A stretch of 13,418 nt of DNA, from IMG/VR virus record IMGVR_UViG_2778261416_000004, positions 1 through 13,418 of that record. One strand, 5' to 3'. Numbering within the stretch: the stretch's first letter is position 1; the number at the start of each line of letters is the position of its first letter. The notes beneath the pieces are model-generated. The model ran no database searches, was not told the origin of the DNA, and was given only the letters and a program-made list of their open reading frames with translations. The DNA is from a virus. Lineage: Duplodnaviria; Heunggongvirae; Uroviricota; Caudoviricetes. Below, one piece after another: positions 1,970 through 11,997 of this stretch. The translations under genes and the position numbers were made by a program.

Positions 1970-2187
1970 AACCGCAGCACGTTCTTGCTTAAGACGTGCT
2001 GCGGCATAATCCCAATGATTACTCCCTGACAGGGTTCGTAGGCCACTCAATATCAGGTGCAGTTGATGTATCAACACGGTTCAGCAACACCCGATACTTT
2101 TTCCAGGCTTCCAGCAATGAGGTTTCTTCCTCCGTTGCAATTTCCAGATCTGCAGCATCCTGAAGCGGCGCAATATGCTCACTGGCT
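1970..2187. repeat. Direct repeat copy 2 (~215 bp), right flank of methyltransferase island; covers 3' end of tfa
   Basis: Aligns with 920-1137 by eye. Contains a perfect 11-bp-stem hairpin (1972-2004). Confidence 0.8.
1972..2004. terminator. Hairpin between convergent methyltransferase and tfa genes (candidate bidirectional terminator)
   Basis: ccgcagcacgt / acgtgctgcgg, 11-bp perfect stem with 11-nt loop, in the 54-bp gap between convergent stops. No clean U-tract, so terminator function is uncertain. Confidence 0.4.
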
Positions 2188-2603
2188 ACCTGCATCAGGT
2201 TGTTTTTTGTTTCTTCCGCCTCCCGGATCCGGAACAGTTTTTCTGCTTCCGTATCCTTCACCCAGGCTGTGCCGTTCCACTTCTGAAACTCCCCTTCCGG
2301 CGATAACCAGGTAACATTTTCCGGTAACGGACCGAGTTCAGAAATAAATAACTCGTCCCCTGACGCTACGTCATAAACCGTTTTACCCCGATGGTCTTCA
2401 ACGAGATGCCACGATGCCTCATCACTGTTGAAAACAGCCACAAAGCCAGCAGGAATATCTGGTGGTGCAATATCGGTACTGTTTGCTGGCAGACCTGTAT
2501 GAGGCGGAATATATGCGTCACCTTCACCAATAAATTCATTAGTTCCGGCCAGCAGATTATAAATTTTTATGGTCCGTGGTTGTTCACTCATTCTGAATGC
2601 CAT
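2019..2603 (-). CDS. tfa: Tail fibre assembly protein Tfa (lambda Tfa-like)
   Basis: 194-aa ORF; '[39 protein letters not shown]...' matches lambda Tfa as I recall it. Start ATG overlaps the stf stop (TAATG at 2601-2605), a typical stf-tfa coupling. Confidence 0.9.
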
Positions 2604-6096: not shown

Positions 6097-6104
6097 GTCC
6101 ATAA

Positions 6105-6340
6105 GAAAGCCCCTCCGGAGAGGGGCTAAAGCCGCGTATCTGTATCATCATGCACATGGTGCCGGGTGCCTCCCGGTGAGTTCAGCCCGGTGCCACTAAA
6201 CCCGCGTCATTCTCGTTTTGATAATCAGAGATTATACCGTCACCAGTCGCCCCTCCGCTCAGGGGGATTCACCATGCGAAATTTTTTTAACAAATGCCCA
6301 GTCTGACAGGCAACTGTCAACTTACTGAATTGTGAGCAAC
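6105..6340. repeat. Non-coding direct repeat module A (~235 bp)
   Basis: Shares with module B a perfect 20-nt palindrome agcccctccggagaggggct (6108-6127), 'gcatggtgccgggtgcctcccggtga', 'gcccctccgc.cagggggattcaccatgc' and 'ctgaattgtgag' blocks. Also carries TTGACA and TATAAT hexamers on the minus strand and a CTGACAG-N4-CTGTCAA inverted repeat. Confidence 0.7.
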
Positions 6341-6591
6341 ATAGCATTTAACGGGGAACCTGTTTTCTGCAGTAAAAAGGCCCACCGGAGCGGATGGGCC
6401 TGGAAGGATAGCGGTCATGTGATGCCGGTTTCCCGGTAACTCAGCACCGGTATCTGAGTCAACGTTTTCTCTACTGGGTCATTTCCGATACGCCCTGCCT
6501 GCTGACAGGCTTTCATCACATCTGAAAATATAGCACCCTGACTGATACTGTAGTACCTAAGGTTCCAGAAACTGTGATGTATCCGGCACAG

Positions 6592-6808
6592 AAAAGCCCC
6601 TCCGGAGAGGGGCTGGAGAGTGGCGCTATGTGCCATTGCATGGTGCCGGGTGCCTCCCGGTGAATTCAGTACCAGCACCTGAATCCGCGATTATCCCATA
6701 TACCTACTCGCTGATTGCCCCTCCGCACAGGGGGATTCACCATGCCAGTTTCTTTTAACAAACTCCCCGCAAACCAGACAACAGTCAACCGCCTGAATTG
6801 TGAGACAT
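6592..6808. repeat. Non-coding direct repeat module B (~217 bp)
   Basis: Second copy of module A (roughly 75-80% identity by eye). The palindromic hairpin at 6595-6614 is followed on the minus strand by TTTTCTG. Confidence 0.7.
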
Positions 6809-6849: not shown

Positions 6850-6926
6850 TGGCGCGTTGTACTGGATTCGAACCAGTGACCGATTGCTTAGAAGGCAATT
6901 GCTCTGTCCGGCTGAGCTAACAACGC
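6850..6926 (-). tRNA. argO: tRNA-Arg (anticodon UCU)
   Basis: Manual fold of the reverse complement: acceptor GCGTTGT/ACAACGC, D-arm GCTC...GAGC, anticodon loop CTTCTAA, T-arm ACTGG-TTCGAAT-CCAGT, discriminator G, CCA; 77 nt. Confidence 0.85.
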
Positions 6927-6939
6927 AGGATACAGATAA

Positions 6940-7016
6940 TGGACCGCCTTCGGGGACCCGAACTCCGCGCAACCAGCTTCGAAGGCTGGCGCTCTTTCCT
7001 GATGAGCTAATGGCGG
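6940..7016 (-). tRNA. argN: tRNA-Arg-like (anticodon UCG), possibly degenerate
   Basis: Cloverleaf with anticodon loop CTTCGAA and 3' CCA, but an A.A mismatch in the acceptor stem, an A.C mismatch in the T-stem and an atypical T-loop TTCGGGT. Confidence 0.55.
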
Positions 7017-7023
7017 TATGTGA

Positions 7024-7099
7024 TGGTGGCCCTTGCTGGATTTGAACCAGCGACCTGGCGATTATGAGTCGCTCGCTCTCACCACTGAGCTAAAGGGCC
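7024..7099 (-). tRNA. ileZ: tRNA-Ile2/Met (anticodon CAU; ileX-like, likely lysidine-modified Ile)
   Basis: Reverse complement GGCCCTTTAGCTCAGTGGTGAGAGC...CTCATAA...GCTGGTTCAAATCCAGCAAGGGCCACCA gives a canonical 76-nt cloverleaf, closely resembling E. coli ileX as I recall it. Confidence 0.85.
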
Positions 7100-7148: not shown

Positions 7149-7577
7149 TCAAACGATTAAATCCTGAACTTCCCTGACTGTCTGCTCAAAACGTCCGGTC
7201 TCCAGTTCAACGCCAATCGCACGACGCCCGAGCGCCAGTGCCGCTTTTACCGTTGAACCTGAGCCCATAAAAAAATCTGCAACCAGGTCACCCGGACGAC
7301 TGCTTGCGCTGATTATCTGCTGCAGCATTTCTGCCGGTTTTTCGCACGGATGTTTCCCGGGATAGAACTGCACCGGTTTATGTGTCCACACATCCGTGTA
7401 CGGCACCTGCGCCGTCACACCAAAATACCGCCGCAGATGCTTATATTCACTCTGCAGCTCCACATACTGCCGGTTCAGTGACGTATACGTATCCACCAGC
7501 TGGTGGTGGGGCTTTTCCAGTTCACCGCGCTGATGTTTCTCTTCTGCTACCAGAACAGGTCGAAGTAATACCCGCAC
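7149..7577 (-). CDS. DNA (N6-adenine/N4-cytosine) methyltransferase, C-terminal portion (truncated or frameshifted)
   Basis: 142-aa ORF with 'GKHPCEKPAEMLQQIISASSRPGDLVADFFMGSGSTVKAALALGRRAIGVE', i.e. the HPxxKP and FxGSGST (SAM-binding) motifs of beta-class MTases such as YhdJ. No DPPY motif in this ORF; GTG start abuts the stop of the upstream ORF in another frame. Confidence 0.7.
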   Translation of the reverse strand: MRVLLRPVLVAEEKHQRGELEKPHHQLVDTYTSLNRQYVELQSEYKHLRRYFGVTAQVPYTDVWTHKPVQFYPGKHPCEKPAEMLQQIISASSRPGDLVADFFMGSGSTVKAALALGRRAIGVELETGRFEQTVREVQDLIV

Positions 7578-7578
7578 G

Positions 7579-7851
7579 TTACCTCCAGATGCGTTGCTGG
7601 AATGTGCGGGACGGACGCGGTGGGCGTTCAGAGTAAGGAAGCCTGACGGAGATTATCCAGTGACGATAATCGAGGCTGAGGGCTTTCTTAATCTCGTATC
7701 CGCGTCTGCGGTAGTTATGAATTAGCCATTCGGCCTGTTCTTCAGTACATGGTGGGTGTTGGTACCAGTCGGTTTTAAATGCGTGTGAACGCCGCCCATG
7801 CCGGATGGCAAGGTCGGTATCAGAATTGTGAAATTTGGTTTTGTGCGCCAT
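7579..7851 (-). CDS. Hypothetical protein; possibly the displaced N-terminal part of the DNA methyltransferase
   Basis: 90-aa ORF ending 1 nt before the MTase fragment start. Contains 'DWYQHPPC' where a DPPY-type motif would be expected, but this is not a convincing match. Confidence 0.4.
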   Translation of the reverse strand: MAHKTKFHNSDTDLAIRHGRRSHAFKTDWYQHPPCTEEQAEWLIHNYRRRGYEIKKALSLDYRHWIISVRLPYSERPPRPSRTFQQRIWR

Positions 7852-7922
7852 CTGTTTTCTCTGCTGGCGCAGCAGGTGTCAGGTGTTCAGGCTGACGTGC
7901 GAATTGTAAACCAGAATGCCAG

Positions 7923-7950
7923 AAAAAAACAAAACCCGCCGAACCGGGTT
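7923..7950 (-). terminator. Rho-independent terminator downstream of hok (minus strand)
   Basis: Minus strand: AACCCG-GUUCGG-CGGGUU hairpin followed by UUGUUUUUUU, about 70 nt 3' of the hok stop. Confidence 0.55.
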
Positions 7951-8018
7951 AAGTGCGGGTGCGTTGAGGATGCCTGACACATCAGAGGTGGCGAGGGATT
8001 TCTCCCCCGCCAGGTCTC

Positions 8019-8174
8019 TTACTCCTCAGGTTCGTAAGCTGTGAAGACAGCGACCTCCGTCTGGCCGGTTCGGAGTCGTACCTCGCAGAGGTCTTTCCTC
8101 GTTACCAGTGCCGTCACTATGACGGTTAAACAGATGACGATCAGGGCGATTAACATCGCCTTTTGCTGCTTCAT
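8019..8174 (-). CDS. hok: Hok/Gef-family type I toxin (HokD/RelF-like small membrane protein)
   Basis: 51-aa product 'MKQQKAMLIALIVICLTVIVTALVTRKDLCEVRLRTGQTEVAVFTAYEPEE' aligns with plasmid R1 Hok ([38 protein letters not shown]). ATG at 8174 has an AAGGGGAAG SD; an in-frame upstream extension to 8231 (70-aa ORF in the track) could be a mok-like leader ORF. Confidence 0.85.
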   Translation of the reverse strand: MKQQKAMLIALIVICLTVIVTALVTRKDLCEVRLRTGQTEVAVFTAYEPEE

Positions 8175-8411
8175 AGCCTGCTTCCCCTTGCCTTTCGGCA
8201 CGTAAGAGGCTAACCTACATTTGTGAGACATAGATTGGGCCTCAGATTAATGTTAAGCGTCTTGCAGGACGCGAAATGTTAACTGGGGCTTTTCTCTATC
8301 TGCCTTTCAGTGTTCATGCCTGAGACAGATAGCCTCAAGCACCCGCAGCCATTCTACTTAACTCACGTCACCTCGCCAATATGAAATCAATCAGAAAGGT
8401 GATCCATAAAA

Positions 8412-9098
8412 TCACTCCTTCTCTTCTTTTCCGTAGTGGAGTTGGCCAATTTTGATAAGAGGGCGTCCCTGAGATTTGCGGTGTAGATTGGTATCGCGCA
8501 GAGAATACACACAGCCACAATATTCCTGCTGATAGAATTTTTCGCGCTTGCTGATTTCAATCATACGGGACGAGCCGCCCTGCTTGCGCCAGTTATAATC
8601 CCAGTACACCATACCCGGATAATGCGCAACAGCTCGCCGCCCACACTCGTTAACCTGCTGCATATTTTTCCAGCGTGAAATGCCCAGTGAACTGCTGATC
8701 ACACTGAAACCATTTTCAGCAGCGTACAACGCTGTCCGCTCAAAACGCATGTCAAAACACATGGTACAACGGATCCCCCTCTCAGGCTCCCATTCCATTC
8801 CTTTGGCACGTTCAAACCAGTTGTCGGTGTCGTAATCAGCATCGATAAACGGCACGCCGTGTTGTTCAGCAAAGCGAATATTTTCATCCTTACGAATTAA
8901 ATACTCTTTCTGAGGATGAATGTTCGGGTTGTAGAAAAAGATGGTGTAGTCGATTCCCGAGGCCTGAAGCGCCTCCATCACTTCACCGGAACATGGAGCA
9001 CAGCAAGAGTGCAGTAGTAGTTTGTTTGCCCCGTTTGGGAGCTCCAATTTAGGCCGTTTGAAATCAGCAATAGTCATAAATATTTTTATTGGGGTCAT
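8412..9098 (-). CDS. queH: QueH-like protein (DUF208; putative epoxyqueuosine reductase)
   Basis: 228-aa ORF with motifs '[11 protein letters not shown]', '[13 protein letters not shown]', 'CTMCF' and 'CGC', which I recognise as the DUF208/QueH Fe-S signature. 153-bp intergenic region upstream; weak SD. Confidence 0.7.
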
Positions 9099-11939: not shown

Positions 11940-11997
11940 TTTCTGGTGACATTTGGCGGTATCAGTTTTACTCCGTGACTGCTCTGCCGCCCTTTTT
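11940..11997 (+). ncRNA. dicF: DicF small regulatory RNA (ftsZ-targeting sRNA of the dicB operon)
   Basis: 'tttctggtgacatttggcggtatcagttttactccgtgactgctctgccgcccttttt' matches the DicF sequence as I recall it, including the terminator stem GGCGG...CCGCC plus U-run. Confidence 0.75.

Follow-up and report, generated by a model that had tools for sequence, protein, structure and literature searches.

A very probably intact hok/mok/sok toxin-antitoxin cassette in a lambdoid prophage of Escherichia coli

Positions 7923-8411 of the viral DNA analysed here (the window: the whole 13,418-nucleotide stretch of the Caudoviricetes record IMGVR_UViG_2778261416_000004) carry a locus of the hok/sok type, with a gene for the small toxin Hok on the minus strand and a predicted antisense RNA, Sok, on the plus strand. 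The features assigned to the locus, given with the evidence used for each, were the following:

8379-8351, minus strand: hok/mok promoter (-35 TTGGCG at 8379-8374, 17-nt spacer, -10 TAGAAT at 8356-8351), from a promoter scan
8344-7926, minus strand: predicted full-length hok mRNA of about 419 nt, from the +1 at GGGUGCUUGAGG to the U-run of the terminator, with putative ends
8344-8333, minus strand: tac, GGGUGCUUGAGG, the 5' end of the mRNA, from the folds; nearly invariant across homologues
8291-8285, minus strand: ucb (anti-Shine-Dalgarno), AAGCCCC, from the Rfam consensus structure and the fold of the truncated mRNA
8243-8240, minus strand: mok Shine-Dalgarno (SD) sequence GAGG, 8 nt 5' of the mok ATG, read from the sequence
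8239-8223, minus strand: target of the Sok tail (sokT-like), comprising the mok start codon and the hairpin loop CUCACAA, from the folding ensemble and the entropy profile
8231-8019, minus strand: mok open reading frame (ORF) of 70 codons in frame with hok, from the ORF list and its translation
8210-8206, minus strand: dcb, GCCUC, pairing with the mok SD, from the Rfam structure and from the full-length and truncated folds
8189-8184, minus strand: hok SD sequence AAGGGG (AAGGAG in most relatives), read from the sequence
8174-8019, minus strand: hok coding sequence, 51 amino acids (aa) and a stop codon, encoding a HokD-type peptide, from the ORF translation and Pfam
8012-7989, minus strand: stem-loop of the 3' untranslated region (3'-UTR), UGGCGGGGGA-GAAA-UCCCUCGCCA, with a stem of 10 bp in the full-length and truncated folds, presumably the protective hairpin of the 3' end
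7969-7957, minus strand: fbi, CCUCAACGCACCC, complementary to tac, from the minimum free energy (MFE) structure, the ensemble and conservation
7950-7923, minus strand: intrinsic terminator, AACCCG-GTTCGG-CGGGTT followed by TTGTTTTTTT, from a terminator scan
8188-8216, plus strand: Sok promoter (-35 TTGCCT at 8188-8193, 17-nt spacer, -10 TAACCT at 8211-8216), from identity to sokW and conservation
8223-8293, plus strand: Sok antisense RNA of a predicted 71 nt, colinear with sokW, from which its ends were transferred by homology

The peptide translated from the minus-strand ORF, MKQQKAMLIALIVICLTVIVTALVTRKDLCEVRLRTGQTEVAVFTAYEPEE, matched the HOK_GEF profile (PF01848) over positions 1-42 of 42 with E=1.6e-22 and 79 bits (cut-off 22), in agreement with the first-pass annotation of this DNA, which had regarded the Hok product as clear. 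It differs from K-12 HokD by one substitution in the alignment, and DNA identical to the hok gene of the window is annotated as hokD (RefSeq) in many genomes, that of E. coli O104:H4 included. The ATG at 8231, proposed earlier as the start of a mok-like extension, lies 57 nt 5' of the hok ATG in the same frame with no stop codon between them, opens an ORF of 70 aa and is preceded by GAGG. Being in frame, mok reads as an N-terminally extended Hok; homologous phage ORFs carry the annotation mokW.

Searches with the Mok and Hok proteins led to 142 loci, and an alignment (A2) was made of 98 distinct full-length homologous units of 58-100% identity. The mok ATG was kept in 96 of 99 aligned sequences, and was in frame and reading into hok in 82 of them. 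GAGG forms a conserved block of columns, and CAAGG at the hok SD is nearly invariant. The UUACGAA stretch around the Tyr47 TAC codon of hok (8031-8037, minus strand) was likewise nearly invariant among the 98 homologues. The target of the deaminase TadA contains UACG, and we take this stretch to be probably a TadA editing site of the hokD type. A-to-I editing by TadA is reported to recode a tyrosine to cysteine in the hokB, hokC, hokD and hokE mRNAs (bioRxiv 10.1101/2025.08.07.668861).

The stop codon of the upstream gene, a queH homologue, is separated from the hok ATG by 237 nt (8175-8411). This interval had been described as a non-coding leader; the gap was confirmed, but only 8344-8175 would be 5'-UTR, and 8345-8411 contain the hok promoter and a spacer. 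In a consensus scan of 7800-8500 the hok promoter was the sole sigma-70-like site (9/12 matches), and a TAnnnT -10 sequence stands at a constant distance from GGGTGC in nearly all 98 homologues. The same interval contained a single terminator-like site, the one 3' of hok, whose stem (AACCCGGTTCGGCGGGTT, 7950-7933, followed by TTGTTTTTTT) starts 68 nt past the hok stop codon, very near the distance of about 70 nt given before. Homology to distant loci starts at the hok promoter, and homology to many loci stops at the terminator. It extends from the -10/+1 region to fbi or the terminator, also in loci of Escherichia, Kluyvera, Photorhabdus, Pantoea and Erwinia, and these boundaries identify the transcript as the conserved unit. 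A 59-aa 'hypothetical protein' (RefSeq; L001, 8944-9123), corresponding to 7798-7977 on the plus strand of the window, runs antisense to the hok 3'-UTR, fbi and the terminator; since it overlaps conserved RNA structure, it is probably a spurious gene call.

The leader (8344-8169) matched the full 157-position model of Rfam family RF01794 ('sok') with 120.5 bits (gathering score 59; E=1.4e-27). Because this match runs along the hok-sense strand as far as the hok AUG, it marks the conserved mRNA leader, and was rejected as a match to a Sok gene. The MFE of the 8344-7926 transcript was -170.8 kcal/mol (z=-6.8 relative to shuffled sequences), which together with the Rfam match puts the structure of the locus far beyond chance. 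In the full-length fold nucleotides 1-12 (tac) pair with fbi, with an ensemble pairing mass of about 12 bp, which is essentially complete pairing, and ucb pairs partly with the mok SD and partly with the hok SD. The loop of the Sok target (nt 118-124) was 0.97 unpaired in this ensemble. When the 3' end with fbi was removed in silico, tac re-paired with ucb, the tac-ucb mass being 0.0 before and 6.0 after truncation, and the resulting structure was the Rfam consensus structure, in which tac is paired to ucb. The same switch of tac from fbi to ucb has been described for the hok mRNA of plasmid R1 (PMC9841398). The minus-strand transcript, whose folding had been suggested before, thus contains tac, fbi, ucb, dcb, both SD sequences and the 3' stem-loop, all of them conserved.

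The leader also contains an additional hairpin of about 18 nt (GCGUC-CUGCAA-GACGC, approximately 8258-8275, minus strand), an insertion relative to the Rfam consensus that lengthens the Sok hairpin. It was found in the prophage hokD/hokW clade and in some Kluyvera loci; many chromosomal Escherichia loci lack it, as do the Photorhabdus, Pantoea and Erwinia loci.

The window MFE structure was then scored on the alignment. In the 98 homologues 89.3% of the cells were paired, compared with 34-43% when the 3' partners were slid, a control that is generous and biased because the tested structure came from one of the aligned sequences. There were 360 cells with double changes, as opposed to 134 +/- 9 in shuffles, and 41 pairs had changes on both sides. 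Helices 1 and 2 of the tac-fbi pairing were 95% and 92% paired over the 98 sequences, and pair 44/468 in this region was changed from U-A to C-G in 12 of them; in Photorhabdus GGGCGCUUGAGA pairs with UCUCAAGCGCCC. Five pairs changed on both sides were seen in helices 17 and 18 of the 3'-UTR hairpin, with GC replaced by AU in 36 and in 21 sequences. The pairs between dcb and the mok SD (143-146/181-184) were G-C or A-U in 95-97 of the 98 sequences. Helix 4 of the full-length MFE structure, CCCC with the GGGG of the hok SD, was considered as a further conserved element and rejected as allele-specific, its second pair being present in only 9 of the 98. The sequence elements, their conservation, the covariation of the long-range pairs and the tac switch in silico are thus direct observations of this work.

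The first-pass annotation had expected the plus strand of the leader to encode a Sok-type RNA. By homology to sokW this RNA could be placed at 8223-8293 and its promoter at 8188-8216, inside mok and convergent to hok transcription. In VT2-Sakai sokW is annotated as a 71-nt misc_RNA whose 5' end is 8 nt into mokW; the corresponding region of the window is colinear with it without a gap (65/70 identities in the body), and the placement of Sok follows from this colinearity. The hokW-sokW study of Takada et al. (2021) gives 71 nt of complementarity (PMC8621323). The promoter is identical to that of sokW in 29 of 29 positions, including the -10 hexamer, and the hokW mRNA probe YO-597 of that study matches 8186-8215 of the window at 30/30. 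Comparison of the mutagenic primer YO-421 with the wild type indicates that in the 'pro-less' construct the -10 sequence TAACCT was changed to GAGCCG, and this promoter-less construct lost antitoxin activity (PMC8621323). Among the homologues the -35 sequence TTGCCT was found in 80/99, the 17-nt spacer in 98/99, and TAACCT or TAATCT as the -10 sequence in 78/99. Sok is predicted to fold into a long imperfect hairpin that is preceded by a single-stranded 5' tail of 14 nt and followed by a UUUU tail (-28.1 kcal/mol, z=-4.9). The mok start codon and the adjoining, mostly unpaired loop are complementary to this 5' tail, and the predicted energy of the cognate duplex is -30.9 kcal/mol. An antisense RNA placed by homology and conserved hok folding elements were thus both found, whose joint absence had been named as the mark of an inactive remnant.

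The nearest known system is mokW-hokW-sokW of 933W and VT2-Sakai (Sp5), which is colinear with the locus of the window over the promoter, the leader, the coding sequence and fbi. Identities are 157/168 in the 5'-UTR and 147/156 in the coding sequence, both Sok RNAs are 71 nt long and each of the two loci has mok and hok in one frame. The peptides are identical in 47 of 51 residues and differ at the C-terminus, which is HokD-like in the window (VFTAYEPEE) and VFVDYESEK in HokW. The genomic positions also differ: the window cassette follows queH in the nin-equivalent region, whereas hokW is near the right prophage end in Sp5. hokW-sokW is a working toxin-antitoxin pair that depends on RNase III and Hfq (PMC8621323). 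Plasmid R1's parB (hok/sok) locus has the same set of elements, arranged in identical order with almost equal spacing, sharing with the window the GAGG mok SD, tac/fbi, ucb, dcb and the protective 3' stem-loop. The window and R1 have the mok AUG at about nt 114 and about nt 116, and the hok AUG at about nt 171 and about nt 174, respectively; GAGG of R1 is at about nt 105 (PMC9841398). The mok-hok offset of 57 nt keeps the frame in the window, whereas the R1 coordinates (PMC9841398) imply 58 nt, which would put the two R1 genes in different frames. HokW is only 44% identical to R1 Hok (PMC8621323).

The third relative is hokD (relF) of the K-12 Qin prophage, which belongs to the same prophage family, with dicF and dicB nearby, and resembles the window from the hok SD through the coding sequence, the 3'-UTR hairpin, fbi and the terminator. 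It aligns from about 14 nt 5' of the hok ATG through the terminator (97.7% over window positions 7925-8188), and upstream of about 8188 everything is replaced by the 3' end of relE. K-12 hokD therefore lacks the hok promoter, tac, ucb, mok, the Sok target and the Sok promoter, and retains fbi. The arrangement of K-12, with relB-relE directly upstream of a leaderless hokD, was not found in the window, in which queH is upstream and the full leader is present. The first-pass annotation had treated the lack of relBE as a peculiarity of this locus, a view that the distribution in E. coli does not support. Of 5426 complete E. coli genomes, 3815 contained at least 80% of the 521-nt locus and 1173 the relE-hokD junction, so that the 5'-truncated K-12 form is in the minority and the absence of relBE is the ordinary state. 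It is probably also the ancestral one. Judged from the alignment, K-12 relBE-hokD is a decapitated copy of the intact cassette; hokD is said to have been described as rearranged already by Pedersen and Gerdes in 1999. At least 15 genomes, O104:H4 among them, carry a copy of the 521-nt locus with 100% identity, and 446 records match it with 99% identity or more; when partial matches are counted, there are up to nine matching places per E. coli genome.

Taken together, these likenesses make it very likely that 7923-8411 is an intact canonical hok/mok/sok type I toxin-antitoxin cassette of an E. coli prophage, working in the way of R1 hok/sok and hokW-sokW. Transcription from the promoter at 8379-8351 would then yield a stable mRNA of about 419 nt, from 8344 to about 7926, which in its full-length form would be translationally silent, with tac locked onto fbi. 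Slow trimming from the 3' end would strip off fbi and allow tac to pair with ucb, giving an mRNA that is translatable and sensitive to Sok. The 3'-UTR stem-loop at 8012-7989 is presumed to protect the processed mRNA, as in R1 (PMC9841398). Ribosomes starting at the mok codon (8231) would cross the ribosome-binding site of hok and thereby allow the membrane toxin Hok (51 aa) to be made. The convergent plus-strand promoter inside mok (8188-8216) would meanwhile supply the unstable 71-nt Sok RNA (8223-8293), whose 5' tail would pair with the mok start region, block the translation of mok, and hence that of hok, and leave a duplex marked for RNase III. When the supply of Sok ends, Hok would be produced and the inner membrane damaged. 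In this scheme the transcript ends, 3' processing, mok-hok coupling, the involvement of RNase III, toxicity and the instability of Sok are carried over from the relatives; overexpression of the HokD coding sequence was reported to be toxic (bioRxiv 10.1101/2025.08.07.668861).

The cassette is part of a Qin/DicF-type lambdoid prophage of E. coli and lies in the nin-equivalent region. In O104:H4 the copy is in a lambdoid prophage that also carries dicB, and the genes follow each other in one orientation in the order cro-like, YdaT, O-like, DUF977, QueH, hokD, a 90-aa ORF, DUF968, RusA and antiterminator. This order puts hok between the replication genes and the RusA/Q region and makes the earlier label of a 'nin-like region' a fair one. 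The gene directly upstream of hok (8412-9098, minus strand) encodes the QueH homologue (PF02677, E=1.1e-65), an epoxyqueuosine reductase, that is, a tRNA-modification enzyme carried as phage cargo in the early-right operon. The terminator scan of 7800-8500 detected no terminator between queH and hok. As hok is co-oriented with the early-right operon, read-through upon induction could titrate Sok or interfere with it. The RNA searches added the following features, which are typical of Qin-type and Stx-like lambdoid prophages:

11941-11992, plus strand: the small RNA DicF (77 bits), from the RNA family search
6097-6306 and 6584-6774, minus strand: two copies of STnc100, from the RNA family search
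2062-2260, minus strand: IS009, from the RNA family search
6853-7099, minus strand: three tRNA genes, whose O104:H4 counterparts are annotated as Ile, Arg and Arg, from an RNA search

Relative to the O104:H4 prophage, to which it is otherwise 99.97% identical, the window has a deletion of about 3.4 kb with its junction at 7548-7551. Lost in this way are DUF968 except for about 30 nt, RusA, the antitermination protein of the Q type, one hypothetical gene and a DNA methyltransferase's N-terminal portion. The ORF at 7149-7577 (minus strand, 142 aa) is a chimeric remnant that matches only positions 111-219 of the Pfam N6_N4_Mtase profile. The junction as one piece was present in no complete E. coli genome of the collection. 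This copy of the prophage is probably defective for late gene expression.

Several observations speak against a working cassette. The ends of the hok mRNA are inferred positions, and the slide control in the structural comparison favours the tested fold. The generic scans of 7800-8500 missed both Sok signals, the promoter, whose weak -10 sequence TAACCT matches TATAAT in 3 of 6 positions, and the terminator, whose stem is interrupted; for this reason Sok was placed by its homology to sokW and by conservation. The expected opening of the mok SD upon 3' truncation was not reproduced: the thermodynamic model keeps it paired with dcb, and its predicted probability of being unpaired was 0.09 in the full-length RNA and 0.04 and 0.09 in two truncated forms. 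The loss of Q may make an induction-linked role moot in this prophage. Finally, the chromosomal hok/sok loci that were tested, in their native state, did not cause post-segregational killing (bioRxiv 10.1101/2025.08.07.668861), so an intact sequence is not proof of activity. This last result, the poor consensus of the Sok -10 sequence and the 3.4 kb deletion that took Q from the host prophage would also fit a remnant that still looks like hok/sok but has lost expression or toxicity, as in the case of the decayed K-12 hok loci, which were described as inactive (PMC1635323). Yet the locus contains no insertion sequence element, frameshift or truncation, and all of its regulatory elements are intact. 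Its widespread occurrence and exact conservation in E. coli, the compensatory changes that keep the helices, and the functionality of hokW-sokW at 93-94% identity (PMC8621323) are also difficult to reconcile with decay. Taking these into account, we rejected the inactive remnant as very improbable.

For the intact cassette, the candidate physiological roles are help in lysis at induction, retention of the prophage and exclusion of other phages. It is possible, if somewhat doubtful, that induction removes Sok and that Hok, acting ahead of holin and endolysin, speeds the release of progeny as hokW-sokW does in Sp5. There sokW vanishes after mitomycin C in a RecA-dependent manner, HokW appears about 1 h ahead of endolysin R, Hok speeds lysis and a hokW-sokW deletion mutant yields half the phage (PMC8621323). 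The orientation of hok with the early-right operon, with no terminator after queH, would be in line with this role through the possible titration of Sok. However, the location of hokW near the right end of its phage means that the genomic context is not shared, and the prophage of the window, without Q, RusA and DUF968, probably cannot complete a lytic cycle. Addiction, in which a stable hok mRNA and an unstable Sok would kill cells that lose the segment and so stabilise even a cryptic prophage, is likewise a tentative proposal. It is the canonical function of R1 hok/sok (PMC9841398, PMC1635323) and agrees with the annotation 'prophage maintenance' in 933W and VT2-Sakai, with the persistence of the cassette in a prophage that lost Q and with the approximately 4-fold enrichment of hok in prophages (bioRxiv 10.1101/2025.08.07.668861), but the enrichment does not separate retention from other roles, and the failure of the tested chromosomal loci to cause post-segregational killing speaks against it. 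Superinfection exclusion appears unlikely. In this case an incoming phage would stop host transcription, Sok would be depleted and Hok would kill the cell before the phage cycle is completed (abortive infection), but hok is not enriched near defence systems (bioRxiv 10.1101/2025.08.07.668861).

By entropy, the variation within the cassette, which is otherwise conserved at about 95%, was highest at the target of the Sok tail, a stretch of 17-20 nt. In 58 close relatives the entropy of the transcript had a peak of 0.64-0.66 at 8220-8239, compared with about 0.05 elsewhere, and nucleotides 1-16 of Sok hold six of its eight differences from sokW. The SokW tail was predicted to bind the window target with -13.2 kcal/mol, less than half of the cognate value, which makes cross-protection with sokW doubtful. 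In five genomes co-resident copies differ in the tail and have near-identical promoters. These results would agree with a region that determines specificity. It is conceivable, though we consider it somewhat less than an even chance, that the Sok tail and the mok-start target form a fast-evolving 'address' that prevents cross-protection, so that each prophage would keep a private kill switch. As 14-nt windows in the 3'-UTR/terminator region had as many haplotypes as the Sok-tail target or more, the idea of a diversifying address has to be kept at this tentative level. A YUNR U-turn motif in the target loop was not used as evidence: it occurs in 81/96 sequences, but in only 18/28 distinct 10-mers compared with about 38% in shuffles, which is suggestive at most.

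The flanks of the loci L003-L144 are unrelated just 5' of the hok -35/-10 sequences and 3' of the terminator, with at least five types of upstream flank in alignment columns 1-30. With unrelated flanks at both edges, the cassette acts as a separate, movable unit delimited by its promoter at one end and its terminator at the other. Two loci (L021 and L048) lose similarity ahead of fbi and one (L034) has runs of N; this may reflect interruption of the copy by an insertion, which would make it a naturally inactivated cassette, or an assembly gap. Near-identical E. coli-type hok loci (L008, L011, L036, L049 and L058; H22) were also met in records of unexpected taxa, labelled as a metagenome-assembled genome (MAG) of Veillonella parvula, Xanthomonas pisi, Acinetobacter idrijaensis, a 'Candidatus Scatousia' MAG, a Haemophilus MAG and an Actinobacillus phage. 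Among these records are very short contigs as well as MAG bins, and the likely explanation is contamination or mis-binning.

The cassette is of a known kind and very closely related to a phage locus that has been annotated and tested; its biology is not new. Of this widespread locus RefSeq shows the hokD coding sequence alone; mok, Sok and the transcript structure are missing from its annotation. The comparison with K-12 corrects the direction of evolution, in that the textbook relBE-hokD arrangement would derive from the intact cassette. Any cross-reaction among co-resident Sok RNAs would matter for attempts to trigger Hok by antisense inhibitors (PMC1635323).

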